A stretch of 64,000 nt of DNA, from NCBI GenBank assembly GCA_000165345.1, contig CM000436.1:768001-832000 (forward strand). Direction: 5' to 3'. Within the stretch, counting starts at the first letter, position 1. The number at the start of each line of letters is the position of its first letter. This document shows, in pieces, positions 17,572 through 39,755 of this stretch. Under the pieces are notes generated by a model, which saw only the letters and a list, made by a program, of their open reading frames with translations, was not told where the DNA came from and made no database searches. A program made the translations under genes and the position numbers.

Positions 17572-17645
17572 GCACCCATAGCTCAGCTGGTTAGAGCATA
17601 CGGCTAATAACCGTAAGGTCCGCGGTTCGATCCCGCGTGGGTGCA
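17572..17645 (+). tRNA. tRNA-Ile (anticodon AAU)
   Basis: 74-nt cloverleaf. Acceptor GCACCCA/TGGGTGC with discriminator A; D-arm GCTC-AGCTGGTTA-GAGC; anticodon stem TACGG/CCGTA with loop CTAATAA (anticodon AAT); T-arm CGCGG-TTCGATC-CCGCG. The gene is followed by CTTTTTTT, a Pol III terminator. Confidence 0.9.
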
Positions 17646-17767
17646 CTTTTTTTGGCCCCGGCCCACATTTAGGTAATTTAAAGGAAGCAGATCAGTTTAG
17701 TGAGAGGGGAAACGGAAGTTTTTAAATTATTTAAAATTGTTGAGCTACTAATTTAAAATGTGGCTAA

Positions 17768-20700
17768 ATGCTTACTGAAGAATTAGATTGTAATATCTTA
17801 TTGCAGCGGAATAACCTTTGTGAGAAAGGTTGGAGAGTCGGTCAAATCAAGAGAGTAATAATAAATGACATAGGAGGGCACGAATTTATTGATATTAGTC
17901 TACTTCCTGGGGTTAATTTAATAACAGGCGGAAATGGAAGTGGCAAAAGCAGCTTAGTTTCTGCAATTGCTCTGTTATGTGGCTGGAGCGGTAGAAAGGC
18001 TGGTAAGGACGCAAATTTGAATAAATATGTTAGAATAGGTGCAAATAAGGGTACTGTCTGCATACACTTTGCAAATAATGATAACAAATTCCAAAGAGGA
18101 TATTTTAATGATATTTATGGGGAAGAAATAATCATTGAACGCAATATTTATTTGAAGGGTAATTCGAATTATACTTTTAGAGGCTCTAAATCTAGTTCTC
18201 CAATTCACAGATCTTTCAATGCAAAACACCACTTGTCTCAATTTCGTGCCTATGCAAACATAATCATTAATAACCCTGTAACGTTTTTAACACAAATGGA
18301 TGCAAAATATCTTATTCGTGAGCAAAACTCACCAAAATCTTTATACGATTTTTTCCAAAGAGCGCATTTATTTGATTACTCATGGAAACATTTGGCTGAA
18401 GAACAACGTCGCATTGAAAAAGCAGAAATTATTTCCAAATCATTAAATAATGACTTGAAACAATTGGAAAGTGAACTGGAAGAATTTAATAGTATGAAAG
18501 AACTAATTCAGACATATAATAAATTGCAAATACATCGGAGAAATCTTGAAAGTATAAATATTGTGGCATCCATAAAAAATTTGAGCTTATCAATCAATTC
18601 TCTTCTTTTTCAGTCTGAAGAGCTTTATAAAGCCAAGTCAGCATTAGATATTGAGGAGTTAAATAAAAGAATAATCGAAAGTGAAAGAGAAATCTATGAT
18701 TCTCAATCTGAAATAAATAATTTTCATTCAGAACATGAGGTCAATATTAATAAGCATAAAAGGCTAACAATTGAACTGGAACAAATATGTGATAAATTTA
18801 ATTCATATACTAAACAAATTAAAGAAATAAAAGGCGAAATTTCAAGCTTAGAAAAAGAAGTTGAATTTAAACAAGAGAATTATGACTCGAATCAAGAAAA
18901 AAAAAAATTGCATTTTAAAGGAGAATTATTAGAGAAAATTAAAGCTTCAAAAGAAAAAATTAATATTCTGAAGTCTAAAAAAGAAAATTTAATTTTACTC
19001 TCACTAAATAAAAAAAATGAACTAACAACATTATTTGAACAAATTAAAGAAAATAAGGCCAAAATTAATTTATTTTCTGATGAGAAGCTATCATTTAATC
19101 TCAAGTTAGATGAAATCAAGAATATTTTGGAAACAGATAGGAAATCTCTTAAATATGATTCTGATTTAGAGCAATCAAATAAATCTAATTCTACAGAAAC
19201 AGGATATATTGCATATCATAACTCCAAGATTAACGACTCCAAAGGTAAAGAAAGTTTGGCAGTTATATATTCAAGATTGTATGATTACTTTACAGACGAG
19301 GATTTCGAAATTATATTTGGTTATTCAAAATTTGTACATAATAAAATTATTAAACAACTCGAAAAAATTGAAAAAGGGGTGAAAATAATTGGTCCAATTG
19401 CTCTCCATATTTTTCCCAAATCTGAATTCTATTATAATGAAAAAATATTAAGTATACTTGATGAAATTATAGGTGGAAGGTTCGAGAGGTATGATACTAT
19501 ATCTGGCTACAAAATTAGGAGAAATTATAAATATTGGCTAGTTGAAAATTCAGAAACAAGGAAAGAATTGATTTCATTGTTTAAAAATAACAATGTTTTC
19601 TTAGAACCTTCATTAATTTATATAAGGTCTTCATTCAATCAAAAATATGAACTATCTGCTGTTCGTAAAAAATTCCCAAAAGTAGGATTAGCCGTAATTG
19701 ATTTAATACACGTTGAAAATGATGAAGTTTTTAATTTTCTAATAGATAACTTCCAAATAGAAACAACTTTTATCTTCATGAATGACCACGAAATGGATTT
19801 GATATATGATTACAGTCTTAATATTAGAAGGGCACATTGTCTAGCTAATTATTCATTTAAATATCGAAGAGGTGGAATAGTAGTTGCCCCAGAAATTTGT
19901 ATCCCTAAGCAACATGCAACATCAAAAATCGTCATTAGGAAATTAAATGATATTTTTCAATTAAGAAATTATGGATCTGATTTATGTGCTGATCAAAAAG
20001 AAAAAAAAAAATTTAACTTTCCAGAAAAAATCGAAATAAAACGACTATTAGAATTGAATATAATAGAGAATGAGAATAAAAAGAAGGAAATTATTAAAAA
20101 AATTATAGAAATCGAGGAAAAAAATAATGATTTAAAACTTTCAATAACAAATCATGATAATAAAGCCTCCTATATTCGTAATGAAATATCTAGCTTTGAG
20201 ACTGAATTGGAAGATATTACTAAAGAAGAGCAAATAATTAACATGAAAATTGTAGAGTTAGAAACAGAGCTTCGGAAACTTGATAGGGATGAAAAACACA
20301 TTTTCAATGTAAATATTTCTGAGATTAATCATTTATCTACGAAGTTAAGTGAACTTAATCAACTTCTTACTGTAATTGAAGAAAAAATTAGTTATGAGGA
20401 AAAATTAATGAAAAATAAAGAAGCCGATATAGAAAAATTAAAAATTATCCTCGATAATGAAAAGGAGTTTATCAAGTTAAAAGAACAGAAACATAAAATT
20501 TTGAAAATTAATAAAAATTCTTTACTTAACGAAAAACCCCAAATCGAAGTAAAAATAAATCAGATAACTAACAAAATAAATCAGTTAAATACTGAAATTG
20601 ATTTTAAAAAAAATGAGTTGAAAGGCTTGAAAAATAAATATCGAACGATTAATACCAAATTTTGCGCTGCTAATGAATCTGAAATTGGAACTGACTTCCT

Positions 20701-21574
20701 GATTACCAATGATCTATTGTCTACACTCGAATACTTTAATTGTTGTTTAAATTTGTCAGGAGATATTGAACCCTTTCCAGATTGTTCAACTATAGAACTT
20801 TGGAAATCAAACATATCTAGACAAATGGATACTATTTTTTTAGAAATTATGGAAAAATCAAAAATTTTCGGGTTCAATGTTACCCAGAGAAATTGTTCAG
20901 AAGACTTAATTAACAAAATACTGGACACTATAAATATAAAGTATGAAAAATACAAGGAGAAAATAAATGAATTACAAGAAGAAAACAAGCTTTTAAATCA
21001 GAACAGAACGAATCTAAATAGAAGGATCCAACGGTTACAAAAAGATCATATTCGCTGCGGAAAAAATGTAAATTTACAATTCAAGCATTACTTTTCTATT
21101 TTTTGGTCAAAAACAATGCGCCCTCATCTCAAGTTCGACCATGACAAGTCGATCTTGAGTATCTATGTTATTCCTGATACTGCTACTGTGAAAAAACCTA
21201 AACAGACTGAAAGCCATTTATCTTCTGAAAGAAATTCTACATCCTGCAAAGATCAACTCAACAATTTTGTGAGTAGGGAAATTCAATCTCTAAGTGGTGG
21301 AGAGAGTAGTAGTATTGGTATATCGCTTCTATTAGCGTTATCCCAAAACAACTCTTCACCGTTCCACCTCTTTGATGAACCAGACGTATATATGGATGAC
21401 ATCCGGAGAATGACGATGATTCGGTCATTAATAGAATTCGAACGTTTGTGCTCAAAAGGAAAAATAACTTTTAATAGGCAAGTTTTATTTATTACACCCC
21501 ATAGTGAAATCGTGCCACATATTAAAGAAAATTATGCCGATATAATTCATGTTGTACAACTAATTAAAAGATAG
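17768..21574 (+). CDS. SMC6: Structural maintenance of chromosomes protein, SMC6-like
   Basis: N-terminal Walker A (..VNLITGGNGSGKSSLVSAIAL..), a very long coiled-coil, and C-terminal signature/Walker B (..LSGGESSSIGISLLLAL..FHLFDEPDVYMDDIRR..). The DEPDVYMD motif is characteristic of SMC6 (DEFDVYMD) rather than SMC5 or SMC1-4. Confidence 0.7.
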   Translation: MLTEELDCNILLQRNNLCEKGWRVGQIKRVIINDIGGHEFIDISLLPGVNLITGGNGSGKSSLVSAIALLCGWSGRKAGKDANLNKYVRIGANKGTVCIHFANNDNKFQRGYFNDIYGEEIIIERNIYLKGNSNYTFRGSKSSSPIHRSFNAKHHLSQFRAYANIIINNPVTFLTQMDAKYLIREQNSPKSLYDFFQRAHLFDYSWKHLAEEQRRIEKAEIISKSLNNDLKQLESELEEFNSMKELIQTYNKLQIHRRNLESINIVASIKNLSLSINSLLFQSEELYKAKSALDIEELNKRIIESEREIYDSQSEINNFHSEHEVNINKHKRLTIELEQICDKFNSYTKQIKEIKGEISSLEKEVEFKQENYDSNQEKKKLHFKGELLEKIKASKEKINILKSKKENLILLSLNKKNELTTLFEQIKENKAKINLFSDEKLSFNLKLDEIKNILETDRKSLKYDSDLEQSNKSNSTETGYIAYHNSKINDSKGKESLAVIYSRLYDYFTDEDFEIIFGYSKFVHNKIIKQLEKIEKGVKIIGPIALHIFPKSEFYYNEKILSILDEIIGGRFERYDTISGYKIRRNYKYWLVENSETRKELISLFKNNNVFLEPSLIYIRSSFNQKYELSAVRKKFPKVGLAVIDLIHVENDEVFNFLIDNFQIETTFIFMNDHEMDLIYDYSLNIRRAHCLANYSFKYRRGGIVVAPEICIPKQHATSKIVIRKLNDIFQLRNYGSDLCADQKEKKKFNFPEKIEIKRLLELNIIENENKKKEIIKKIIEIEEKNNDLKLSITNHDNKASYIRNEISSFETELEDITKEEQIINMKIVELETELRKLDRDEKHIFNVNISEINHLSTKLSELNQLLTVIEEKISYEEKLMKNKEADIEKLKIILDNEKEFIKLKEQKHKILKINKNSLLNEKPQIEVKINQITNKINQLNTEIDFKKNELKGLKNKYRTINTKFCAANESEIGTDFLITNDLLSTLEYFNCCLNLSGDIEPFPDCSTIELWKSNISRQMDTIFLEIMEKSKIFGFNVTQRNCSEDLINKILDTINIKYEKYKEKINELQEENKLLNQNRTNLNRRIQRLQKDHIRCGKNVNLQFKHYFSIFWSKTMRPHLKFDHDKSILSIYVIPDTATVKKPKQTESHLSSERNSTSCKDQLNNFVSREIQSLSGGESSSIGISLLLALSQNNSSPFHLFDEPDVYMDDIRRMTMIRSLIEFERLCSKGKITFNRQVLFITPHSEIVPHIKENYADIIHVVQLIKR

Positions 21575-24076: not shown

Positions 24077-26704
24077 TTATCTAAATTTACTGTTAGGGTG
24101 CGCAATTCCTTTCGGATTACCCAAAATAATTTCTTGATTAAACTCGACTTTATCTCGATGAAATTTACTTTTAATAAGTATCCAGATAAATATTCCTATG
24201 AATATCGATCCAGAAATACTCAAAATCCCTATTATTCTATTGGAAATACTTTTTTTTTCTTTCCCAACAAAAATTACTTTATCTTCATCAACATTTGAAT
24301 TGATAATATCATAACTCAAATTATTTGGATTTAAATCTAGTGCTTGATATTTATGATTTTTGACATCGTTTAAATCGCCAGAGGAATTTTTGTTTAAATC
24401 GCTAAGGTCCAACGATATTGGGTCAGTATTTGTGTTAATTGTCTCTTGTCTCAAATCCGAGTGAATATTTCCAATAACAGGAGATAGATGTTGCTTAAAT
24501 AATGAAATTGGGTTTAAATATTCCATTGTAATGTATAACGACTCAAAGCTTCTCCATTTAAATTCAATAGACTTTGTAACTTCTTCTGAATTTATGCCCT
24601 TAAGTTCATTACTGTAGATATTGATCTTTATATTTTCATCTGATGGCCCCCAAACCCTCCATGACCTGATAGGTAGTTGATGAGGCCATCTTGTTCCTCC
24701 AAAGTATTGAAATCCTAACCTTGAGTCGAACTTATTAGAATGGCCATTGCGAATATAATCAACAGCATATGCCTTTATTCCATGAATGCTCCCTAACGTA
24801 GTTCCAATTACCCAAGTATCTTTGGATTTATTAATTACTATCCCTCGATACAACACGTATCCAGGGTGATTTTTCTTCTTATTTCTTTTTTGTCTAAAGA
24901 AAGGGAATCCTAGATATTCTCCCAAATGAAAATAATCTCCATTGATATCATCAGTGCCTCCATTTATTACCATTTTAACATGTTTTGGTTTGATACCTAT
25001 AATTCTGACAAAAACTTTTTCTTCAACAAAATTACTATTTGGAATATTATGCACATATTTCTTTTTAAATGGGGGTTTCAAAAATGCCCAACCATCAGGC
25101 TCTAATTCCATCCCTCTTTCAGCAGGCCAATCAACTTCGGATTTAATTCTTGAATTGCTTGGCCTTCTCCAAATAGCCAAAATTTGGCTGGGGCTAGTAT
25201 TTCCCAATTGCCTTGAAATAATCCACGATATGGCATTTGACTCATTAACAAATGACCAAAGGTACAGACTATTTCCAGGGTATTCTACTATTGAACTTTG
25301 TAAGCTAACGTCCTCACTTCTTAAGGGCCCCCTTTGTACAAAGTATGGCCTACTCTTAAAAAATCCCTCCCAACTATATAAGGCATTAGAGAAGTATCCA
25401 TTCGCACCATTAATTATAATATCTAAAGTTCCCCGTGAAGGTGGTATACATGAAGAAATTTTGTATTTTGTTAATCCGCTAAATTTACTTAAATGAGGAT
25501 TGGGACAACCCGGAAATACTTGTAAATCGTCGGGTGATTCAACTAAAGGAATATGTTCAAGAATAATTGATTCCTTAGGTATAAAAGTAAATGGTCTTGC
25601 TTCTTCAACAATCAAATCCTTATCAAAAACCAATACACGCTTAGACTCCATTTCTTTAGGTATTGTAACAGGTAATGGATTCCTCAAGGGGGTGCTAGGA
25701 TCTAGTTCGACGTATGGAACTATATCATGAGCACTAAACTTTCTTGGCTGAACATACCATCCTCTAGTGTATGCAGGGGAGTATGGCCTTCCAATTATTT
25801 CTGCATAAATTTGTCCAACTGATATTTTTGGGTTATTAATTGGCCAAGTATCTCCAATACACCATCTTTCTATGGGGAAATTTAAAAAAAATATGTACAA
25901 GCTTGGCTCAGGATAAATTCTTCTATAAACTGGCCTAATAATTGGCTCAACATACCAAGGAAACCTTTCATCACTTTGAGACAATTGCATTGATTCTTCT
26001 CTCTTATATATTCCATGTAATGCAGCATTATATGAGGAACTACGGACTTCAATAAATAGTGGAGTATATCTTGCATATGGAATAGTACGTAAATATATTT
26101 CTTTCGAAAAAATTTCATCTTTTACATTTCCTGGAAATGAAAAATATCCAAAATTATTATATTTATTATTTTTAATCGAACTTTCTCCTTCGGTAATTTC
26201 ACTTCCTGCGCTAATATTATTATACTTTGTATTTAGTCTTTCAATCTCATTAATAACAAAATGTTCAATTCCGATCATTCTTTCGTTAGGTCTCACCATA
26301 AATGCAAACTCGTCAATTTGAAGACTTTCTATTTTTGGTTTTTTGATTAGTTTAAATGGCTTAATGGTAGATAATTCTACCTTTTGGGGAGATTTATAAT
26401 GCGACTTCCCAGAAACAGAAATATAATCATGTTGATTGATTGTTTGATTATTGTGGGTCTCTTTAATAAAAATATTCCTCGAATTATCTTTAATATCTAT
26501 TTGAGAGTTAGCTTCATTTAACTCTGAAATATTAATATCATCTATAATTGAAGTTTCATCTTCGCTTTCATCTGTAGAAAACGAACTTTTTTCATGCTTA
26601 TTTTTTAGTAAGTTAACCTCGATTAAATAACCAGTATTTTGGTCAAAAAATAAATAACTATATAGGTATATTAATGAAAATAGTCCCAGAAAATTAATAC
26701 ACAT
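24077..26704 (-). CDS. Large type I membrane protein (875 aa); lineage-specific W/Y/P-rich ectodomain
   Basis: N-terminal signal peptide (MCINFLGLFSLIYLYSYLF), an ectodomain of about 790 aa with many N-x-S/T sites, a single C-terminal TM (IIGILSISGSIFIGIFIWILI) and a short basic cytoplasmic tail. No recognisable catalytic family. Confidence 0.55.
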   Translation of the reverse strand: MCINFLGLFSLIYLYSYLFFDQNTGYLIEVNLLKNKHEKSSFSTDESEDETSIIDDINISELNEANSQIDIKDNSRNIFIKETHNNQTINQHDYISVSGKSHYKSPQKVELSTIKPFKLIKKPKIESLQIDEFAFMVRPNERMIGIEHFVINEIERLNTKYNNISAGSEITEGESSIKNNKYNNFGYFSFPGNVKDEIFSKEIYLRTIPYARYTPLFIEVRSSSYNAALHGIYKREESMQLSQSDERFPWYVEPIIRPVYRRIYPEPSLYIFFLNFPIERWCIGDTWPINNPKISVGQIYAEIIGRPYSPAYTRGWYVQPRKFSAHDIVPYVELDPSTPLRNPLPVTIPKEMESKRVLVFDKDLIVEEARPFTFIPKESIILEHIPLVESPDDLQVFPGCPNPHLSKFSGLTKYKISSCIPPSRGTLDIIINGANGYFSNALYSWEGFFKSRPYFVQRGPLRSEDVSLQSSIVEYPGNSLYLWSFVNESNAISWIISRQLGNTSPSQILAIWRRPSNSRIKSEVDWPAERGMELEPDGWAFLKPPFKKKYVHNIPNSNFVEEKVFVRIIGIKPKHVKMVINGGTDDINGDYFHLGEYLGFPFFRQKRNKKKNHPGYVLYRGIVINKSKDTWVIGTTLGSIHGIKAYAVDYIRNGHSNKFDSRLGFQYFGGTRWPHQLPIRSWRVWGPSDENIKINIYSNELKGINSEEVTKSIEFKWRSFESLYITMEYLNPISLFKQHLSPVIGNIHSDLRQETINTNTDPISLDLSDLNKNSSGDLNDVKNHKYQALDLNPNNLSYDIINSNVDEDKVIFVGKEKKSISNRIIGILSISGSIFIGIFIWILIKSKFHRDKVEFNQEIILGNPKGIAHPNSKFR

Positions 26705-28650
26705 ATCATTATTGAGAATAAAAGTCTTTATTTACAAATTTTGTGTGTGCGTACACACAATCCATTAGTAAAAATTTATATATCGTTGAACGAATATTTA
26801 GTCATCTTTGAAAATATTGATGGGTTAAAGAATCCAAAATCATAATTTTTGATAACTAATCTAATATGTGATTTTTTTTTTCCTCCAACAAATGGCTCAT
26901 TGCGCTATGATTATTATATTAAAATTGACAAAAGGTCGTTATAAATTTCTGTAAAGATAAATTATTTCATAAACTAAAAATAAATGTTCTACTAAATATA
27001 GCTTGAAAAAATATATATTAGCTTAAAAATAAATTAATAGTACGAAAATTATATTCAACACTTGAAAATTCAACTGCTTTTATTTAAGAGGGAAAAAGAA
27101 GTAATATTGAGTACTTTTGTATTTTAAGTTTATTTTATTCGTAAATCCAATTTATTAGGTAATTACAATCGAATTTTTAAAATTTAACAACTTTCAATTT
27201 ATAGAAATTGATTTAACTTTAATCATTCGAGTAGCCAATTTGATCCAAAAATAGTTCAATATGAAAAAGTTTAATTATAGTAATTACTGTGAAATGAATT
27301 AATTTGATATTTATTAACATGAAAGTTTTATTTTCAGCAAATAAAAATCACTACAGTAATTCATAGTATAACTATTCTTAAAAATCATGAACAAACCGAA
27401 AAAATTGAAACTAGAAAATTTATTAAATTATTATTTAAGATCTTTTCCGCAATCTGACAATTTGATGATTCTGATCTTATTCTGACTTAGTTCAACAAGA
27501 GGAATACAATACTTGAATTGAAAAGATTTAAATAAGTTCTAAATTATAAAGTCTCTAATAGTTATTTTGTGCAATAATTTATTAAAAAAGTTGCAACTAT
27601 GTTGATATTTTTGTAAATTTAGTTGAACTTTTTTTTTGAATAATAATACAACATTTAAATATTTTATTTGTACGTAACTTAAGCACTAAAAATTTACAAT
27701 TAAGACTTAAATGTTAATCACCAGCACTTAACATTATCATAATTCGAAGGAGCATATTTTGCCTTAAAATTCTATATTGTTTAAGAAATAAATCTATTAT
27801 ATAAAATATCGCAGTTATCATCTCTGAAATAGATTCTTATCATACTATTATGAAAAGTAAATTAGACATCATTTGAGCTATTAATATTCTCGTTAAATAC
27901 AATTAAAGTAGAAACAATTATCAATAGCTATAAATAGTTATTGGACATTGTAGAGAAATAAAGAACTTAAGGGTTTTTTTAGTATGGCACTTCATTTATT
28001 TAAATTGTAATTTACATAATTGTGCACTGGTTAACATACTATAAATCAAAAATGTTCAAGTGCGTTAATAATAAAGAGCTTAATCAAGGGAGTCAGAATC
28101 GGCAACATTTCCTCGTTATTGATAAATATTCTATTTAAATTTCGGGGAAAGGAATTATTAAACTTAATTTTCTTTATGAATTACTACGATTTGCACATAT
28201 TAGCTTGGATAATCACAATAAATGATGTAATTTGTTTTGAAAAACTAAGCAAAATTTTCGTTACAAATAGTTGAACCTTTTAAATATGTGTTTTGCATAC
28301 TAACAATACTACATTTTTTTAGAAAATGATTCAAGAAATTCAATTTGATATCAATACATGCAATGATTAACAATTGGTAATTGATAAATCAATCTAAGAA
28401 ACTTGAACCGCGTTAAATATTTTAAGACATTTTAGATTTCTGTCTACTTTTTTGACAAAAGCCCGGATAAAATTCCTCGTCTAAATTAAAGTAGACAAAA
28501 AAACGCCCCCACTATTTTGTAATATAATAATTAGCTCGTGCTGGAGAGTATCCGGTACTATTAATACCGCGAATTAGAAATAAAAAATAGATATAAATTT
28601 TATTTTAAATATAGATCGGACAAATTATGTAAAGATCTTGATGACTTTGG

Positions 28651-29865
28651 ATGTCAAACTTGAATAACTTAGCATTGCAATTGGTCCAGATTCTTAACCA
28701 GCATAGTAGCGATGGTGGACCGCAAAGTGCTGTATCATCCAACCAGACGGATACAGCAAATAAGTTTTTGCTTGAACACTATAATAATTTCTTTCTGCCA
28801 TATATTTCGAGAACGGGAAATGAGCATATTTTGAGCAATCCCTGTAACCAGAATTCCACTCCAATTGATCAGCTATTGACATCATATCCGAACAATACTG
28901 GTACACCAATTGGCTCCATTTTAAATTACGATCAATGCGGAAACTTAAAGTCGCCTTCACAATCTACTGATCAAGAACAATTGAATTCAAAACAAAATCT
29001 AGATCCATTAACCTATAATTCAGCGGTGAAATCTACACAACTATTACTTACCTTACAAAACCAAACTCCATTGATTGGGTTACAAAACACTCCGATCGAA
29101 GTTTCAAGACCGCAAGTTTCAAGTTCTTCTACTCAACAAGTCGCTCCACTTAATATACTTAACAATAATTTAAATAATTGGGCAGAATCTGCTCTTTCAA
29201 CATTGCTAGATAAGCCGGATATGCTTATGAATTTAATGCGACTTGGTGCTGCCAGTATTATGGCATCTTATTATGGACAGACACAGAATCCAACTGGCGT
29301 AAATATCTTACAACAAAGTTCTCCGTTTATTTATAATATGTCTCTTTCACCAAAACAAGCTGAAACACCCTGCATTAATAATGTTAGTCCTATTGAGATG
29401 AACAACTCTTCTATGGCATTTACTCCAGTAAAATCACCTTCAACAGAAAAAATTGAACACCAAACCCCGGTATTTACGCCGAATGCATCTCAACAGTTCT
29501 CCGACGAACTAGTTTTCTATAACTTTCTTGAACAGAGTAGAAAACTTTCGTGCGACATCAAAAATCAAAATGAGAAGAAAAATTTATCTACAAATAAAAG
29601 TAATGGACAACCTATTAGGAAAAGCTGTGCAGGGAGGCCACGGTTAGATCGTTCAGATTGGTGTTGTAGTTTATGTAGATGCATTGAAACTGCACAATGG
29701 AGATATCTCAGAAATACCCTCGAGAATAATCAAAACAATATTTGCCATCGTGGTAAAATCCTGGTGTGTAACGCTTGCTATTTAAGAGTGTCTAAGGAAA
29801 ACAAAATTAGACAAAAAATAAATACCTATAAACTAGAAGGAAACATAAAAATAGACGATACTTAG
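28651..29865 (+). CDS. GATA-like zinc-finger protein (atypical extended finger loop)
   Basis: Long Q/N/S/P-rich low-complexity N-terminal region, then a C-terminal finger ..CSLCRCIETAQWRY..(insert)..VCNACYLRVSKENKIRQK. The GATA hallmarks are present: C-x2-C, Thr at +5, Trp at +8, CNAC, and a basic tail. The inter-Cys spacing is about 31 instead of 17-18. Confidence 0.5.
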   Translation: MSNLNNLALQLVQILNQHSSDGGPQSAVSSNQTDTANKFLLEHYNNFFLPYISRTGNEHILSNPCNQNSTPIDQLLTSYPNNTGTPIGSILNYDQCGNLKSPSQSTDQEQLNSKQNLDPLTYNSAVKSTQLLLTLQNQTPLIGLQNTPIEVSRPQVSSSSTQQVAPLNILNNNLNNWAESALSTLLDKPDMLMNLMRLGAASIMASYYGQTQNPTGVNILQQSSPFIYNMSLSPKQAETPCINNVSPIEMNNSSMAFTPVKSPSTEKIEHQTPVFTPNASQQFSDELVFYNFLEQSRKLSCDIKNQNEKKNLSTNKSNGQPIRKSCAGRPRLDRSDWCCSLCRCIETAQWRYLRNTLENNQNNICHRGKILVCNACYLRVSKENKIRQKINTYKLEGNIKIDDT

Positions 29866-30363
29866 GAATTGAAAACTTTTTTTTTATTTTTATTTTTCTT
29901 TATCTCCAAGATGTGTGCGTTCTATCCCTTTATACACACTAATTTATAGATGTAGGATTATGTCTCAAAGATTGCATTTTTATTCACAATTATTTACAAT
30001 GGGCCAAATATTCGTATGCGAATGCTGCGAAGAGCAATCTAGATGTATAATTGACCAGAATGAAGTGGAAATAGTGCGTCCAACACATTGCGTTACAGAA
30101 TATCAACGTAAAATGGGTTATATTCCAGTGATAACATGTAGCCCCATGTCATCAAGAAATCAAACTCCACGCTCAATAATTTCATCATATTTCTATTCAC
30201 CTAGAGGGAATGAGCCATGAAAATAGTTATTTTTTACTGTTTTTTTTCCCCCCTGATAAATAGGTCTTGTCTTTTTCAGTTCCCCCCCTTATTTTATATG
30301 GTATAAAACTCAATTACTTTATTTCATCACAATAGAATTGATTTATGGAAAATCCTAATTATT

Positions 30364-30615
30364 ATGAATGAAGAGGTTTTCAATCTCCAGTTTCCAGATT
30401 CTACAATTTCAAAGATTTCTAAATCAGTATTAAGTAACAACTCCCGTTTGTCTAAAGACGCATGCAAAATTATCAATAGATGTGCTACATTATTTTCAAT
30501 TTATTTAGCATCTCTATCGTGCCCCTCTAAAGATGGAAAAAAATCAACAGTGCAGGACTATAATGTAAAGGCTGCTTTGAAGTATATATCTTCGAAGAAT
30601 AATTCATCTATATAA
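30364..30615 (+). CDS. Histone-fold protein (NC2-beta/Dr1-, NF-YB- or Dpb4-like)
   Basis: 83 aa: ..FPDSTISKISKSVLSNNSRLSKDACKIINRCATLFSIYLASLSCPSKDGKKSTVQDYNVKAALKYI.. This aligns in pattern with the histone-fold of Dr1/NF-YB (LP.A.I.K..K..LP....V...A.......C..EFI....S.A...C......KTI....V..AL). Confidence 0.5.
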   Translation: MNEEVFNLQFPDSTISKISKSVLSNNSRLSKDACKIINRCATLFSIYLASLSCPSKDGKKSTVQDYNVKAALKYISSKNNSSI

Positions 30616-31750: not shown

Positions 31751-33586
31751 ATGGGAACATTTTTTTGTTTCCATACATCAGAAAGGACGATACGTAAGAT
31801 AAATCGTGAAATTAATTATATTACTAAGTCGAAGAAAAAGTTCGATGAGAAGTCAAATAAATTCATTTTAAATGCATTAAAATACGATGGAAAAAAGTCA
31901 AAAATTTTGGTTGACATAATTAAAATTGAAATATCTAGTTCAAATACTATTTTTGAAAAAAGGTTTTTATATTTGTGTCTGTTAGATAGATTAATTATTG
32001 GAAATGCAACATATTTACAGTTGGCATATCAAAATAATTTACTTTCATGTATTGTTATGCTTTCAGATAGTACAAATAAGAAAGAACTGTTTAAATATTC
32101 CGAAAAAGAAGAGGAAATAATGCTTTTATGCAACCTTGCGGCATCCTGCCTTAACAAATGGTATGAGAAGTATTCGAGTGTAAATGATGAATCGATTGAA
32201 TTATTAAGTGAGTTTGTAAATAACTACTTTGTAAATTCATCAAATACTGAAAATGATTCCCAAGAAAATGGAATGGGTAATAATGAATTGAACAATTTAA
32301 AAAATAATCAAAATGATTTCTTGATATCCGAAGAATCGAATATTTTAAACGGCTTAAAACCTCAAGGCTATACAAGTTTATCTAACCAAGTGTTGGATAA
32401 TTCAGATTCTTCATGCTCGTTTGAAATGGAAGTTGATCCAGATTTGTTTGACGTAACTTCTAAAGTGAATGGAAATAGCTCATGCAAAATTGTTTTAAAC
32501 CAAGATTCATCAGTTGAGAATAAGTTTATCGAGGAAGGAATTATTGAAACTTGTGATAAGGATATAAATTTAACGGCAATTGAGCCAAAAACTATTAAAA
32601 TTGATTGTGTCGAGGACTCAAACATGAGTGAGATTGAAACAATTGAAACAAAGTATAGCTTGTTAAAAGAAAAATACTTGTTTCTTGTTCAAAAAAATGA
32701 ATATTTATTATCTAGATTAGAATATTACGAGGATTTTAATTTGCTTTCCAAAAGAATTACAAGAGACAATCAAAGCCTAAAAAAGAATAATTTTGAACTA
32801 TTTAGTAATTTACCAAACAATATTGATTTAAGCAGTTCCTTTCTAGAAAATTTTGGCAATCTCATACTAAATAATGATTGGGTTTTATTTGAGGATAACC
32901 TCATTCAAATGGGTGTTAAATTTCAATTTTCGGAAAATATTGGTAGTTTTAGTTTGTATTTAGGAAACAAACTCCCGAACAGACTAGAAGATTTCACAAT
33001 AACATTCGACTATTCTTATATACATCCTAGGACTTTATCAATTATAAAGAAAAATGAAATAGAGTATCCAAGTTATGTTTCAGGAAAACAACAAATATGC
33101 CTAATTTTTAACGTAGAATGCAACGATGTATATTTTGGAGTTCCAACAGTGATAGTCAAATTCTTGTTGGCGGATAATACTCCTAAAGTGATAGAAATCC
33201 CATTTCCACTATTGGTGAGCAAATTTTCGTATGAGGAAGAACAATATTCAAATGATTTCATCTCAAATCTCTGGCATTCAGAAGTATATTTAATGTCTCA
33301 AGCGTCTACAGAAATAAATACTAGGTCTTCTATAAATCGAATATCAGATGTAGTAAATAAATGCAAGCTAAACGAATCTTTCTATTTATTGATTGAAAAC
33401 GAAAATAATGAAGAAACAGACAAAATAATTTATTTACATGGAAATGTATTAAACCGCAAAGTAATCATTCAAATTCGTGAGTCCACCCCAAACAGCTATA
33501 TTTTGCGTGTAAGATCAGATTCTGGAATTCTTTCTAATTCGATTCTTTCCATAGTGATATTCCAAATAAAAGATGATACTTTTTAA
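31751..33586 (+). CDS. Hypothetical protein; possible VHS/ENTH-like N-terminus and adaptin-ear/GAE-like C-terminal beta-sandwich
   Basis: 611-aa ATG ORF. The N-terminal helical region and the C-terminal region (..ICLIFNVECNDVYFGVPTVIVKFLLADNTPKVIEIPFPLL..) are reminiscent of GGA/Tom1-type adaptors, but this is weak. Confidence 0.35.
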   Translation: MGTFFCFHTSERTIRKINREINYITKSKKKFDEKSNKFILNALKYDGKKSKILVDIIKIEISSSNTIFEKRFLYLCLLDRLIIGNATYLQLAYQNNLLSCIVMLSDSTNKKELFKYSEKEEEIMLLCNLAASCLNKWYEKYSSVNDESIELLSEFVNNYFVNSSNTENDSQENGMGNNELNNLKNNQNDFLISEESNILNGLKPQGYTSLSNQVLDNSDSSCSFEMEVDPDLFDVTSKVNGNSSCKIVLNQDSSVENKFIEEGIIETCDKDINLTAIEPKTIKIDCVEDSNMSEIETIETKYSLLKEKYLFLVQKNEYLLSRLEYYEDFNLLSKRITRDNQSLKKNNFELFSNLPNNIDLSSSFLENFGNLILNNDWVLFEDNLIQMGVKFQFSENIGSFSLYLGNKLPNRLEDFTITFDYSYIHPRTLSIIKKNEIEYPSYVSGKQQICLIFNVECNDVYFGVPTVIVKFLLADNTPKVIEIPFPLLVSKFSYEEEQYSNDFISNLWHSEVYLMSQASTEINTRSSINRISDVVNKCKLNESFYLLIENENNEETDKIIYLHGNVLNRKVIIQIRESTPNSYILRVRSDSGILSNSILSIVIFQIKDDTF

Positions 33587-33817: not shown

Positions 33818-35353
33818 ATGCAAGGAAAATGTACTCTTCATGGTTTAAATAGATACAAAACAATTTGCGAAATAGGTGAAGGTGCATTTGGGGTCGTTTT
33901 CAAATGCATGGATCTTGTTACTAACGAAATTGTTGCGCTTAAAGAGTTTAAAACAATCTATTCAGACGAGAACGAAAATTCATATGTTACAAAAAATTCA
34001 GCAAATGGTAAAGTAAATACAAATTTTTCTCATAATAAAATTCTAAGAGAAATTGCAACACTTAGGAGACTATATGGTCAGAAGAATATCATTCAACTAA
34101 AAGATTTTTTTTTACATGAAAACAGATATTATTTATCGTTAGAGTATTTTCCACAGACGCTTCTGCAATATTTAGAAAAAAGTCCCAAAGGGCTACCTAT
34201 AGAAATAATTAGATCAAGTATTTACCAGTTGTTAACAGCATTGAAGAAGTGTCACTCTATGGGAATTATTCATCGTGATGTTAAGCCTGAAAATATTTTA
34301 ATTAAAGAAATTGAGAAAAACATGAACTTGGAACTTAAGCTTTGCGATTTTGGGTTCGCAAGGTTCATTCAACAAAACAAAAGTTATTCAAATCAATTTA
34401 AAGATAGTTTGTCAAAATCAGTGGATAGTTTATGCGTAGCAAGCCGTCCACTTACAAGTTACGTTTCTACGAGATGGTATAGAGCTCCTGAGCTGCTCGT
34501 AAAAAGTACGGAGTATGGGCCTGGAATAGATGTTTGGGCAGTTGGTTGTATAATGGCAGAACTGATTGATGGAGAACCGCTGTTTCCAGGAACAAGCGAT
34601 ATTGATCAACTTTATTTAATAAGAAATACTATAGGAAAATTAGATAGTAAAAGTCAAGGCATTCTCGAATCAGACAAAAGGCTCTACGACGCGTACAAAA
34701 AACATTTTTATAATGGATTTATATCGGGGTCAAATTCAAGATACAACACTGAGTTAAGCCAATCAAGCGCAGTAATTCCTCCATACCAAATAATTTCAAT
34801 CAAAGAGAGGTACGAAAAAAAAGTTGATCTTATAGCGCTTGACTTTTTACAAAAATCTCTAACAATCGATCCGAAGATGCGGCCAGATTGTCAAGAGTTG
34901 TTGTTACATCCGTTTTTCTCCTCAATTAACGGGACTGAAGGCTTTGCTAAATATGAGCTGGAGTGCGCTTCATCTTCACTTTTAAATATTACAGATTCAT
35001 CGTCTAAGTCACTTTCATTGCCAATTTTTTTTGAGTCTTGTCATTCCTCCGCAAAACACGGAGGAAAAAATTATGATTGCGAAGACAATGATGGTGTAAA
35101 TAAGTTCTCGGAGAATTTTGATCAATCTTACGCAAAAAATAAGTGTGTCTTGAACGATGACAAAACCACTGCCCCTTCTACTCCGGACGATAAATCTACT
35201 CCTTTGCCACACAGCGGTATATTTTATAATTCAAAAATTTGGTGCGAAAAAATTTCACTCCCTAAATTTCCACACATTTTGCCACCCCCACCTAAAAATA
35301 TAAACAATTTGAAGAATTTGTCGAATATTGATACGCAAGAAAATATAAAGTAA
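33818..35353 (+). CDS. Ser/Thr protein kinase, CDKL (cyclin-dependent kinase-like) family
   Basis: GEGAFGVVFKC..ALKEF (subdomains I-II), HRDVKPENILI, DFGFAR, and ..TSYVSTRWYRAPELLV. The TxY-like T-loop context and the APE motif are typical of CDKL/MAPK-like kinases. Long low-complexity C-terminus. Confidence 0.8.
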   Translation: MQGKCTLHGLNRYKTICEIGEGAFGVVFKCMDLVTNEIVALKEFKTIYSDENENSYVTKNSANGKVNTNFSHNKILREIATLRRLYGQKNIIQLKDFFLHENRYYLSLEYFPQTLLQYLEKSPKGLPIEIIRSSIYQLLTALKKCHSMGIIHRDVKPENILIKEIEKNMNLELKLCDFGFARFIQQNKSYSNQFKDSLSKSVDSLCVASRPLTSYVSTRWYRAPELLVKSTEYGPGIDVWAVGCIMAELIDGEPLFPGTSDIDQLYLIRNTIGKLDSKSQGILESDKRLYDAYKKHFYNGFISGSNSRYNTELSQSSAVIPPYQIISIKERYEKKVDLIALDFLQKSLTIDPKMRPDCQELLLHPFFSSINGTEGFAKYELECASSSLLNITDSSSKSLSLPIFFESCHSSAKHGGKNYDCEDNDGVNKFSENFDQSYAKNKCVLNDDKTTAPSTPDDKSTPLPHSGIFYNSKIWCEKISLPKFPHILPPPPKNINNLKNLSNIDTQENIK

Positions 35354-35639
35354 TAACGATCCAAAAATAATAATGTAGACAGCCAAAAGGAATTAATTAG
35401 ATTTATATTATAAGCTGATATATATAGAATTTCTAATAATAAATACCACCAACTTGTTATAGTAGCAATCAGTTACTATTAATATTCATTCTCTATATTT
35501 TAGTTATTTTTTTAATTAATTGCGTAATTTGCCCATTCCCGCTGTGAATATTTGTAGTTTTAAATGCTTCTTAATGAGTTTTGAATAAATTACTTATTAA
35601 TGTTAATAGAGGCTGGTAATATTGGCCCTAGCTCTTACT

Positions 35640-38600
35640 ATGTCTAAAATTAGGTTCCAGAAAAGTCAATTATCAATTGAACCAGAACCTCCAAAAGAGA
35701 TAGATGAGGATCATCGCGATTTTTTAATTAAGGAGTCTAAATGGATGTATGGATGTTTCATAGATGAACACAAATGGAAAATAAAATCATTTAAAGCAGT
35801 TGCTCAATGTGCAATTAGATACCTTCAGACCAAAAACCAACGATTAAAAAAACGAAAAGAAGAAGAAGATAAACGTCTAAGGATTGTTTCAAAAAATATT
35901 TCAGTAAACATCAATAAATTCTGGAATAATATTTCTAAGATTGTGAGACATCGAAAGCTAAGCGAATTAAATAAGCTTTTGAGAATCAAGCAATTCGAAA
36001 AACTTGATAAACTTGTATCTGAAACTGAAAAATTTTATTTTGGGACTAATGAGGATTCAGGAAAAAAAACTCAACCAAATGATAAATACTGCAAAATAGA
36101 TTTAAAAAGTAAATCTGATAGTGAAGATGATCTCGAAACAGACAATTGGGACTATATTGAAAAGGTTGACAATAAATTAGATCTAGAAATGGAAAGTTCT
36201 GACTTTGATAGTGATGAAGTTAATGCTGAGTTAGATGAACTGAATAACGATGCAAGCTTAAATTTAGAAGAGTTGTACTTAAAGTATTATGGTAATCCTT
36301 ACGACAAAAAAAATAATTTAAAAAGAGATAAATCAGACCATGCTTATATTGGAGATGCAATAAAACGTAAAAAAAACGACTACTGTGAAGAGTATGTTGA
36401 AACCACTATTAGCAAACATATTGAAGAAGAGTTGGGTACGGAAAAAGAAATGAATGACACAGATAAAAAAAATGATTTTAGTCTGAAAGATGAATTTGAA
36501 ACATTGAGCAATGTTGCAAACACTCCAATTGATAAAGCTATTGCAAACCTAGAAGAAAAAAACAATCCACAAAATTGTTTGGAAACTAATAATGCTCTCG
36601 CAAAAGTTTCAATCGATCAAATTAAAATCCCTTTTCTTCTAAAAAATAATATGAGGGAATACCAAGTTGCTGGACTCGAATGGATGGTCAAATTGTACAA
36701 AAAAGGATTAAATGGAATCCTTGCTGATGAAATGGGTCTTGGAAAGACAATTCAAACTATTTCGCTCCTTGCATATCTTGCTTGCTATATGAAAAATTGG
36801 GGGCCACATTTAATTGTTGTACCTACCAGCGTAATGTTGAATTGGGAAATGGAATTTAAACGATGGCTTCCATGCTTCAAAGTTATCACGTACTTTGGAA
36901 CTCCAAAAGAGAGACAGAAGAAAAGGATTGGATGGAACGATCCTAATGCATTTAATGTATGTATTGCGTCATATACTTTAATTTTACAAGATGCACATAT
37001 ATTTAAAAGGAAACAATGGCAATATTTAATTTTAGATGAGGCTCAAAATATCAAGAACTTTAAGTCTCAAAAATGGCAAGTAATGTTATCATTTAATACT
37101 GAAAGAAGACTTTTGCTTACAGGCACACCATTACAAAATAACTTAATGGAACTTTGGTCATTGCTGCATTTTTTGATGCCTCATATATTCACATCGCATC
37201 ATGACTTTAAAACTTGGTTTTCCGACCCTTTAACGACTGCCATTGAAAATCAGCAGGTTGAAAATGAAAGAAATTTATTAAGTAGACTTCACTCTGTGTT
37301 GAGACCCTTTTTATTAAGAAGATTAAAAAAGGATGTGGAAAAGGAAATGCCATCAAAAATTGAACATGTAATTAAGTGTCCCTTAAGCAAGCGTCAAAAA
37401 GAGCTATATGATGAATTCCTTGAAAGTAAAACAACTCAAAATACTATTGCTGGCGGAGATTATATTGGCTTGATGAATGTATTAATGCAGTTAAGAAAGG
37501 TTTGTAATCATCCTGATCTTTTTGAACCTAGGACAATTAAGACGCCAATTGTTGAAAAAAAACTAATGATAAATTATTCATTTAGCTCGCTAATATTCTT
37601 CCCAAATATATGTATTACAATGTCATCTAATGTGCCTGGACTGGGAAAAAATATCTCGACAAATAATTACCTATATATCGGCAAAAAAACTAATAAGTCG
37701 AAATACACGACTCTGTTTGACAAATTAACTAATCACAGGTTTGTGAATATACCAAATATTTTTATTTTATACAACGAAATCCATATGAGTAAGTTTCAAG
37801 CACAATCACAATGCGAATTAACTTACAAAAAATGGACTGGAATGCAATCCTGTAATTACAACATAGAAAATTCATTGTTCAGCAAACGTACTATAGGAAC
37901 TGAGAATCTGTTGGAAATAAACCGTTTTATAAGAATTGGTCTTGATAGATTAGCTTCTGTTGAATTCAACTCCCCCTTAATAGGAATGGATTCAAAAAGT
38001 ACCGAGTACACAAAAGATGTTAATAAATACATACTTGACCACATTTCTAATAACAAGGTGAAAAATAAATCTAATAGTGTTATTAACTCAACAGAGAGTG
38101 TTTCTTTATTTTATAAAGAGGATAATCGAAAGATTGCATCCGAATGGAGACCTTCGTGTGACTACCCACATTTATTGGATGAATCGGTTCAAATATTTCA
38201 TTCAAATAAAATTAAAAATACCAATTGTGATAGTAAACCATGCATAAAATTTGGTTCACCATTCAATGTTGTTTATGGAAAAGATTGTAGAAATTTTATT
38301 TTTGATCAAATACAAAATAAGTTAAAAATGGTTGGTGAAAAAACATTTTCATTCTCAACTTTTCCTAATTTATTTTCAAATCGAAAAAAATCTTATAAAA
38401 ATACAGCTATATCATATAAGTCAATTGATTACAATACTCTCAATGAAATGAATGCTAAATTAATTAATTTAGAAATGTTTCCAAGCAAATTATTATTTGT
38501 GAAACCTAATTTTCGCAAGCAGCTCCCAATGTTATCACAATTCAACATGATTCTTGAGAGAAAAGTTATTTCAACAAATTTTTCCATTCCTATAGAGGGT

Positions 38601-39755
38601 AAATATTCATTCGTTAAAAATGAGCTTTTTTGCAACTCATATATTTCTTTACAAGTTGATAATTTAATCAATTCTTCAAATGCATATTTACATAATATTT
38701 CCTTCTTTAAAAAGTGTATTGTTCCTCCTAGAAGAATAATTGAGGATGATTGCGGAAAATTCCAAATACTTTCTCGATTATTACATAAACTCTTTAATGA
38801 AGGGCATAGATGTATCATTTTCACGCAGATGAGCAAAATGCTGGATGTTTTAGAATCCTTCATAAACTACCGAGGATACAACTATCTTCGATTAGATGGA
38901 AGCACTAAAGTTGATGACAGACAAAAACTTGTGAATAGATTTAACAGAGATCAACGAATTTATCTATTTATTTCATCAACTAGGTCTGGTGGGGTTGGAT
39001 TGAATTTAACTGGCGCAGATACTGTTATTTTTTATGATTCTGACTGGAACCCAGCAATGGATAGACAAGCAATGGATCGCTGCCATAGAATTGGCCAAAC
39101 AAGAGATGTAAACATATATAGGCTAGTTTCTGAATGGACAATTGAGGAAAGCATTTTTAAAAAGCAGCTCCAAAAGAGATTATTAGATGATGTTGTTGTT
39201 GATCAGGGCCGCTTCACTTCAGAGTTTTTTTCAAAAAACGATATTCAAAAAATGATTGGGTCAAGAAATCAGAATATGCTTAATTCTGATAATAACAGTA
39301 TTTATGTCACAAGGGTACTCCATGAAAGCTCAACTGCCGATTCGAATGCTTCAGCAAATTTTAATGACAACCAAAAGAAAGAATTTGAAGATGTTTTAGC
39401 TGCAGTAGAAGATTTAGATGATATTAATGCGCTGAAGAAATCTTCTAGAGAAATTGCCACAGAGAATGATGATTTTATTAATGAATTTGAAGAAAAAATA
39501 AAGCATAAGGTTGAATCAAACAGAACCCTAGAAAAAGACAATGTTGGTAATTTTAATCAGTATGACATAACTACAAATATCACGCTGAATAACTTACTCA
39601 AATATTGTATTGAATTTTTTGAAAGTGTGTCAGTTCCTCTAGATATTCAAAATGAAGTTGATTTATTAGAATTTCAAATTAATAATATTAATAGTGACAG
39701 CTCAATTGAAAATTCATTATCCGAATATTCGCAGGGTGAATTGCCATACGATTAG
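35640..39755 (+). CDS. SWR1: SWR1/SRCAP-type SNF2 chromatin-remodelling ATPase (HSA domain + split helicase)
   Basis: The track ORF starts at TTG 35622; the first ATG is 35640 (MSKIRFQ..). HSA-like N-terminus. ATPase lobe 1 ..LREYQVAGLEWMVKLYKKGLNGILADEMGLGKTIQTISLLAYLACYMKNWGPHLIVVPTSVMLNWEMEFKRW.. is near-identical in pattern to SWR1/SRCAP. A long insertion precedes lobe 2 (..LDGSTKVDDRQKLVNRFN..SGGVGLNLTGADTVIFYDSDWNPAMDRQAMDRCHRIGQTRDVNIYRL..). Confidence 0.85.
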   Translation: MSKIRFQKSQLSIEPEPPKEIDEDHRDFLIKESKWMYGCFIDEHKWKIKSFKAVAQCAIRYLQTKNQRLKKRKEEEDKRLRIVSKNISVNINKFWNNISKIVRHRKLSELNKLLRIKQFEKLDKLVSETEKFYFGTNEDSGKKTQPNDKYCKIDLKSKSDSEDDLETDNWDYIEKVDNKLDLEMESSDFDSDEVNAELDELNNDASLNLEELYLKYYGNPYDKKNNLKRDKSDHAYIGDAIKRKKNDYCEEYVETTISKHIEEELGTEKEMNDTDKKNDFSLKDEFETLSNVANTPIDKAIANLEEKNNPQNCLETNNALAKVSIDQIKIPFLLKNNMREYQVAGLEWMVKLYKKGLNGILADEMGLGKTIQTISLLAYLACYMKNWGPHLIVVPTSVMLNWEMEFKRWLPCFKVITYFGTPKERQKKRIGWNDPNAFNVCIASYTLILQDAHIFKRKQWQYLILDEAQNIKNFKSQKWQVMLSFNTERRLLLTGTPLQNNLMELWSLLHFLMPHIFTSHHDFKTWFSDPLTTAIENQQVENERNLLSRLHSVLRPFLLRRLKKDVEKEMPSKIEHVIKCPLSKRQKELYDEFLESKTTQNTIAGGDYIGLMNVLMQLRKVCNHPDLFEPRTIKTPIVEKKLMINYSFSSLIFFPNICITMSSNVPGLGKNISTNNYLYIGKKTNKSKYTTLFDKLTNHRFVNIPNIFILYNEIHMSKFQAQSQCELTYKKWTGMQSCNYNIENSLFSKRTIGTENLLEINRFIRIGLDRLASVEFNSPLIGMDSKSTEYTKDVNKYILDHISNNKVKNKSNSVINSTESVSLFYKEDNRKIASEWRPSCDYPHLLDESVQIFHSNKIKNTNCDSKPCIKFGSPFNVVYGKDCRNFIFDQIQNKLKMVGEKTFSFSTFPNLFSNRKKSYKNTAISYKSIDYNTLNEMNAKLINLEMFPSKLLFVKPNFRKQLPMLSQFNMILERKVISTNFSIPIEGKYSFVKNELFCNSYISLQVDNLINSSNAYLHNISFFKKCIVPPRRIIEDDCGKFQILSRLLHKLFNEGHRCIIFTQMSKMLDVLESFINYRGYNYLRLDGSTKVDDRQKLVNRFNRDQRIYLFISSTRSGGVGLNLTGADTVIFYDSDWNPAMDRQAMDRCHRIGQTRDVNIYRLVSEWTIEESIFKKQLQKRLLDDVVVDQGRFTSEFFSKNDIQKMIGSRNQNMLNSDNNSIYVTRVLHESSTADSNASANFNDNQKKEFEDVLAAVEDLDDINALKKSSREIATENDDFINEFEEKIKHKVESNRTLEKDNVGNFNQYDITTNITLNNLLKYCIEFFESVSVPLDIQNEVDLLEFQINNINSDSSIENSLSEYSQGELPYD

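Follow-up and report, generated by a model that had tools for sequence, protein, structure and literature searches.

A conserved Cryptosporidium protein with a divergent, long-loop GATA-type zinc finger and relatives in other apicomplexans

The DNA analyzed here, referred to as the window, is a stretch of 64,000 nucleotides (positions 768,001 to 832,000 of contig CM000436.1, assembly GCA_000165345.1). It contains a single-exon coding sequence at 28651..29865 on the forward strand that encodes a protein of 404 amino acids, exactly the open reading frame given in an earlier note made from the letters alone. An exact-sequence look-up identified the product as C. parvum Iowa II EAK89486.1 (Q5CVR6, CPATCC_004137), which is annotated there as a "hypothetical protein". 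Orthologs that are collinear with it and 386–409 aa long were found in C. meleagridis, C. hominis, C. tyzzeri, C. ubiquitum, C. canis, C. felis, C. xiaoi, and C. serpentis, and those of C. hominis, C. canis, C. felis, and C. xiaoi already carry the label "NHR/GATA-type" or "GATA-type" in UniRef/NCBI. The Cryptosporidium alignment used throughout comprises 11 sequences, namely that of the window and 10 relatives, from about nine species.

The gene order is kept in four species: a small gene, a histone-fold gene, and an adaptin gene follow downstream of this one. The small gene, directly downstream at 29999..30220 (+) in the window, encodes a 73-aa protein whose start, MGQIFVCECC, resembles N-myristoylation/palmitoylation sequences; the mechanical list of open reading frames begins this gene at a GTG at 29915. 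The small protein has no Pfam match, contains the invariant segment SPMSSRNQTPRS, and is 84% identical in C. ubiquitum (L001:4329-4553) and 62% identical in C. xiaoi (L003:2121-2336). The histone-fold gene (30364..30615, +) encodes 83 aa and matches CBFD_NFYB_HMF with 26 bits; in C. ubiquitum, C. xiaoi, and C. serpentis, Pfam likewise identifies a gene of this kind downstream of the GATA-type gene, and the corresponding position in C. felis holds an 80-aa gene without a Pfam match. Other neighbors include an adaptin-like protein (31751..33586), a protein kinase (33818..35353), and two large genes on the forward strand, one for an SMC/Rad50-like ATPase (AAA_23, SMC_N; 17768..21574) and one for an SNF2-family ATPase with an HSA domain (35622..39755). 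A tRNA-Ile gene with anticodon AAT (17572..17646, +) is the sole RNA gene reported by Rfam and ARAGORN within the window. Upstream of the coding sequence, neither strand of the ~1.95 kb from 26705 to 28650 holds an open reading frame of at least 60 aa, and the region is very AT-rich (GC 0.236 for 26001-28000). This gap is long for a compact genome, the C. ubiquitum ortholog is preceded by a similar one of ~2.1 kb, and it could carry regulatory elements or a non-coding transcript.

The C-terminus of the protein reads IRKSCAGRPRLDRSDWCCSLCRCIETAQWRYLRNTLENNQNNICHRGKILVCNACYLRVSKENKIRQK and has the arrangement C339-x2-C342-x30-C373-x2-C376, with a threonine at +5, a tryptophan at +8, a CNAC motif, and a basic tail. 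The GATA hallmarks listed in the earlier note (C-x2-C, T +5, W +8, CNAC, and KENKIRQK) can all be read in the translation, which for 29626-29817 is CAGRPRLDRSDWCCSLCRCIETAQWRYLRNTLENNQNNICHRGKILVCNACYLRVSKENKIRQK. Pfam, a PDB profile search, and hhalign locate a GATA-type zinc finger at 29665..29778 (+). Its putative zinc ligands, C339, C342, C373, and C376, are the sole cysteines that are invariant across the wider family. The signature residues T347, W350, R351, G368, and C373-N-A-C376 are present and were aligned to canonical fingers by hhalign and HMMER. Across the six reading frames of the window, the combined pattern C..C....T..W...CNAC was found a single time, and none of 200 shuffled windows contained it; for CNAC by itself, the expectation is 0.165 occurrences in each shuffled window. 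Several contact positions (Q349, R351-Y352, and Y377-L378-R379) differ from the canonical ones: the leucine before the tryptophan is replaced by glutamine, the arginine after WR by tyrosine, and the glycine after CNAC by tyrosine, and the lysine that follows is shifted by one position.

Two conserved segments flank the finger core. On its N-terminal side, the arm IRKSCAGRPRLDRSDWC (aa 322-338; 29614..29664, +) contains G328-R329-P330 (29632-29640) and R334 and is invariant in 11 of 11 aligned Cryptosporidium sequences; the same holds for the GRP and the arginine in B. microti, in gregarines, and in a Cryptosporidium paralog described below. With a G-R-P flanked by basic residues and placed eight residues before the first zinc ligand, the arm resembles the AT-hook and its RGRP core. 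However, it reads A-G-R-P-R, the residue before the glycine being alanine or isoleucine instead of arginine, and a Pfam search for the AT-hook (PF02178) gave no match at E up to 10; the arm is AT-hook-like only. On the other side, CNAC leads into the predicted recognition/basic helix CNACYLRVSKENKIRQK (aa 373-389; 29767..29817, +), which aligns to the helices of MED-1 and GATA18. The basic region RVSKENKIRQK lies directly C-terminal of the finger, and lysine and arginine together make up 20% of aa 321-404.

Sequence comparison gives good support to the homology of this finger with GATA fingers. The Pfam GATA model (PF00320) has a gathering cut-off of 26.8 bits, which is reached by neither the intact protein (14.5 bits) nor an 82-aa C-terminal fragment with its loop (19.6 bits, E 6.8e-4). 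When the loop was excised in two alternative ways, the scores were 26.8 and 25.6 bits (E 3.8e-6 to 9e-6). The comparison with and without the loop that the earlier note had proposed thus takes the finger from 19.6 bits to exactly the cut-off (E 3.8e-6). Among PDB sequences, a single-sequence search matched only C. elegans MED-1 (E 0.028), whereas a profile of the family gave six matches, all GATA-type, with MED-1 as the best (2kae, 1.5e-5) and Arabidopsis GATA18 as the second (8j48, 0.005); GATA-1 fingers were weaker matches, with the GATA-1/FOG entry 1y0j at E 0.26. In hhalign, the family profile aligned with six canonical fingers at a probability of 96% and an E value of 3e-9; the sequences of these six were entered by hand, a caveat on this result.

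An AF2 model built on a diverse alignment has a mean pLDDT of 76, with 88–93 for the finger halves and helix and 59–68 for the insert; a shallow alignment of orthologs only gave 51.5 and was uninformative. In keeping with the structural expectation of the earlier note, the model forms a beta-hairpin, with strands WRYL and ILVC, and then a long helix that begins at CNAC, from N374 (model residue 54). A Foldseek search of the PDB returned the GATA3 DNA-binding domain as its top match, and the thymidine-kinase lasso, LIM, FYVE, and HNH modules reached similar, non-significant scores. The predicted fold is thus consistent with a GATA-type finger, and as evidence for one it is weak. The model, Pfam, the PDB profile search, and hhalign side with the first of the two readings offered by the earlier note, that of a lineage-specific expanded GATA finger.

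The expansion itself is real, although its exact size differs from the "about 31 residues" first noticed: the spacing from C342 to C373 is 30 residues, and 28 in the C. serpentis ortholog. The estimate of about 13 extra residues between the tryptophan and CNAC was borne out, at 12–14. When hhalign aligns the protein with canonical fingers, the insert appears as a single 12-residue gap, at about aa 356-367, which separates the residues following WR from the conserved glycine, and G368 is therefore taken as the canonical glycine. We place the insert LRNTLENNQNNICH at about aa 353-366 (29707..29748, +), between WRY and R367-G368, on the basis of hhalign, the relatives, and the AF2 model; its boundaries are arbitrary within a few residues. 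This corresponds to the beta-hairpin turn ahead of the helix.

We compared the codons of C. parvum with those of C. ubiquitum, C. felis, C. xiaoi, and C. serpentis. In the finger halves, pN is 0–0.03 while pS is mostly 0.45–0.78, and they are under very strong purifying selection in Cryptosporidium; the segment of aa 373-389 is almost invariant (pN 0–0.02). The insert has a dN/dS of 0.05–0.10, similar to that of the rest of the protein (0.08–0.09). Its tip is variable, and its flanks, L353-T356 and H366-R367-G368-K369, are invariant; in C. serpentis most of the central positions differ and two codons are deleted. A cysteine in the loop, C365, was considered as part of a second zinc site and rejected as a metal ligand, because it is phenylalanine in C. 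xiaoi and missing in C. serpentis. As a separate observation, codons 367-389 (29749..29817) show unusually low synonymous divergence, with a pS of 0.07 against C. ubiquitum and 0.14 against C. felis, compared with 0.44–0.71 for the remainder of the gene; against C. xiaoi it is not low. Chance, codon preference, or a constraint at the RNA level may account for this in the 23 codons concerned.

To place the finger among known proteins, aa 315-404 were searched exhaustively with phmmer against 1.84 billion representative proteins at E<=1e-3. Apart from the ortholog and a spurious 1870-aa repeat protein (P0017), which has no aligned stretch and is a compositional or repeat artifact, the search returned only proteins with a GRP...CxxC...TxQWRY...CNAC signature: B. 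microti BmR1_04g06230, a Gregarina sp. protein, the transcript GHVP01010013, assigned to Polyrhabdina sp. (PMC10304595), and a Cryptosporidium protein of 636–639 aa. The last is annotated as "GATA zinc finger domain-containing protein" in C. andersoni, C. muris, and C. serpentis (P0021, P0023, and P0024). It is a paralog, because C. serpentis has both this protein and an ortholog of the window's; it was seen only in gastric Cryptosporidium species. A profile search added a member from Filipodium phascolosomae (P0026). This member and a weak, unrelated long-loop finger (P0027) were the only contributions of two word-index profile searches, which returned 330 and 45 candidates and missed known members that score 77–120 bits with the same profile. 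The exhaustive phmmer search, at E<=1e-3, found no member in Plasmodium or Toxoplasma.

By their shared sequence features, these proteins constitute a small apicomplexan subfamily, which we call GRP-GATA, in Cryptosporidium (two paralogs), gregarines, and Babesia microti. Its signature is GRP-x3-R-x4-CxxC-x4-TxQWRY[LI]-(variable)-CNAC[WY]-x4-K. Two of the relatives, from Filipodium (33.3 bits) and Gregarina (32 bits), exceed the Pfam GATA cut-off, while those from B. microti (24.3 bits) and the Cryptosporidium paralog (25.8 bits) are borderline. Outside the finger, the C. parvum protein has no similarity to non-orthologous family members, its N-terminal 320 residues included. Four further residues, C326, C338, C344, and H366, are invariant in the orthologs within the genus, absent from every other family member, and occur together only with an insert of the type found here.

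Length variation in the subfamily is confined to one point in the finger. The loop has 16 residues in B. microti and Filipodium, 22 in the Cryptosporidium paralog, 28 in the C. serpentis ortholog, 30 in the other orthologs including that of C. parvum, 35 in Polyrhabdina, and 51 in Gregarina. From the shortest forms of 16 residues, the same site has been enlarged independently to 22, 28–30, 35, and 51. The unrelated finger P0027, a 91-aa product of a 3-kb contig from a Logan assembly, has a canonical-looking KTPQWR...CNACGLR with a 35-residue loop at the same site, which shows that the turn can take long inserts outside the apicomplexan subfamily too. Loop length also varies in plants and green algae, in which the odd-length type IVe makes up 1.19% of 5,536 domains (PMC11608367). 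Since all variation in the subfamily falls at one point, and given P0027 and these type IVe loops, the hairpin turn before the conserved glycine is a general insertion hot spot, of which Cryptosporidium is one conserved case.

Class-IV fingers are defined as CX2CX17-20CX2C (PMC8153473, PMC5693882). The C. parvum finger has their four cysteines, signature residues, and basic tail; its 30-residue spacing lies outside the 17–20 range, and it lacks the canonical contact residues, which are a leucine before the tryptophan, Arg-Arg after it, and Gly-Leu-Tyr/Phe after CNAC. With canonical fingers (PF00320; for example the chicken GATA-1 C-finger 1GAT, GATA3 4HC7, and fungal AreA), it has in common CxxC...CNAC, T(+5), W(+8), and R(+9), a glycine five residues before the third cysteine, a helix that starts from CNAC, and basic residues following the finger. 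The canonical loop, in contrast, has 17–18 residues, and the canonical T(P/T)LWRR and CNACG correspond to TAQWRY and CNACY here, with the conserved lysine one position later; in addition, the C. parvum protein lacks a second finger and carries the invariant GRP arm upstream. In C. elegans MED-1 (2KAE), ET..WR, an aromatic residue following CNAC, and the spacing of the helix lysine are as here, whereas the loop is 18 residues long and the GRP arm is missing. The TPQWR motif of plant GATA factors of classes IVb and IVc is common to the apicomplexan subfamily, yet plant fingers keep CNACG, have loops of 18 or 20 residues in 92% of cases, and lack the GRP arm. On these sequence comparisons, we class the finger as a divergent variant with homology to GATA fingers and would not count it among the canonical members.

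The remainder of the protein had been described as Q/N/S-rich low complexity. The composition agrees, with glutamine, asparagine, and serine at 35% of aa 1-320, but the region is not only low complexity, because it contains three blocks that are invariant or nearly so in the 11 aligned sequences. These are an N-terminal motif MSNLNNLALQLVQILNQ (aa 1-17; 28651..28701, +), a central block WAESALSTLLDKPDMLMNLMRLGAASIMASYYGQ (aa 177-210; 29179..29280, +) with a dN/dS of 0.01–0.05, and an acidic/hydrophobic block QQFSDELVFYNFLEQSRKLS (aa 281-300; 29491..29550, +). The central block has no Pfam match and was not found in the non-orthologous family members. The block at aa 281-300 may be an activation or interaction motif, and all three are candidates for partner recruitment.

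Taken together, we consider it about 75% probable that the gene encodes a Cryptosporidium nuclear regulator, likely a sequence-specific transcription factor, whose sole recognizable domain is one C-terminal class-IV finger that shares an ancestor with canonical GATA fingers. One zinc ion would be held by C339, C342, C373, and C376. In GATA-DNA complexes such as those of GATA-1 and GATA3, a segment of the finger and the N-terminus of the helix contact the major groove. By analogy with these solved complexes, we expect the TxQWR segment and the N-terminus of the CNAC helix to sit in the major groove of the DNA. Further contacts, with the backbone or the minor groove, would come from the extended basic helix KENKIRQK and the AT-hook-like GRP arm. 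In GATA-1, the edge of the hairpin turn faces away from the DNA and serves cofactor binding, and for this reason we read the insert as a tolerated, solvent-exposed loop that would leave the fold unchanged and could offer a docking surface. DNA binding should not simply be assumed, because the canonical contact residues are changed. The preferred site may also differ from WGATAR, given these changes and the fact that the nearest solved relative, MED-1, recognizes AGTATAC (PMC6945043).

We weighed this reading against four others. That the insert is an annotation or assembly artifact, for instance a micro-intron left unspliced or an error in sequencing, and hides a normal finger, has nothing in its favor beyond the unusual length, and we regard it as exceedingly improbable. 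The 42-nt segment has no GT...AG boundaries, is in frame, and is conserved as protein, which rules out an intron; C. ubiquitum, C. felis, C. xiaoi, and C. serpentis, whose genomes were assembled independently, keep it with synonymous changes, and C. serpentis differs by a clean two-codon deletion. The second reading of the earlier note, an unrelated treble-clef or zinc-ribbon that came to look GATA-like by convergence on CxxC...CxxC only, is disfavored and already largely refuted, which makes it very unlikely. A loop far longer than 17–20 residues and the comparable structure-search scores of other zinc modules would suit it. However, the agreement extends beyond the cysteines to T+5, W+8, R+9, the glycine before the third cysteine, CNAC, and the helix lysine; every sequence match in Pfam and the PDB is to GATA, with the family profile matching only GATA-type PDB chains; relatives with a short loop exceed the Pfam cut-off; and the hhalign probability is 96%.

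The two remaining readings accept the GATA ancestry and differ on function. GATA-like fingers in some chromatin-remodeling subunits have been reported as interaction modules, and the finger could likewise have ceased to read DNA and become a protein- or chromatin-interaction module with the expanded loop as its binding surface. The replaced base-contact positions (Q349, Y352, Y377, and R379) fit this idea, as does a loop on the edge that GATA-1 uses for partners, with 1y0j among the weaker PDB matches; the neighboring genes for histone-fold and SNF2/HSA proteins are chromatin-related, a linkage that may be coincidental. We nevertheless think it rather unlikely, as the basic helix and GRP arm are invariant and strongly basic, MED-1 binds DNA sequence-specifically with similar substitutions, and the N-terminal 320 residues resemble a typical effector region of a transcription factor. 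A bolder reading, which we hold to be doubtful, makes GRP-GATA a distinct, undescribed DNA-binding class in which the GRP arm, finger, and basic helix together read a non-GATA site. In Cryptosporidium, C326, C338, C344, and H366 would then form a second zinc site that staples the arm and loop to the core, giving a binuclear module with a new specificity that controls a life-cycle stage. The invariance of these four residues within the genus leaves room for a genus-specific second metal site without supporting one.

Besides ApiAP2, E2F/DP, and Myb proteins, only about three of GATA type are on record for C. parvum, given as three "GATA DNA-binding" proteins in a survey from 2013 (PMC3734150). 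In the open-access literature, we found no study of any of these proteins and no paper on the present gene (searched also by accession and locus tag), its expanded loop, or the GRP-GATA subfamily. The novelty is modest, because databases already label some orthologs GATA-type: the finger is a real, conserved, and modestly unusual variant of a well-known domain and not a new kind of system. For annotation, it means that the Pfam GATA model at its curated threshold misses such proteins. For the biology of zinc fingers, it shows that the turn before the conserved glycine tolerates from 0 to about 35 inserted residues with the surrounding signature kept.

Cryptosporidium is a major cause of childhood diarrhea, and its transcriptional control is poorly understood. 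A protein hitherto annotated as hypothetical can now be described as a strongly constrained GATA-type factor with relatives in gregarines and Babesia microti. Its defined signature, consisting of the GRP arm, altered contact residues, and an expandable loop, together with an 87-residue construct, makes the proposed function directly testable and the gene a candidate for tagging or knock-down.
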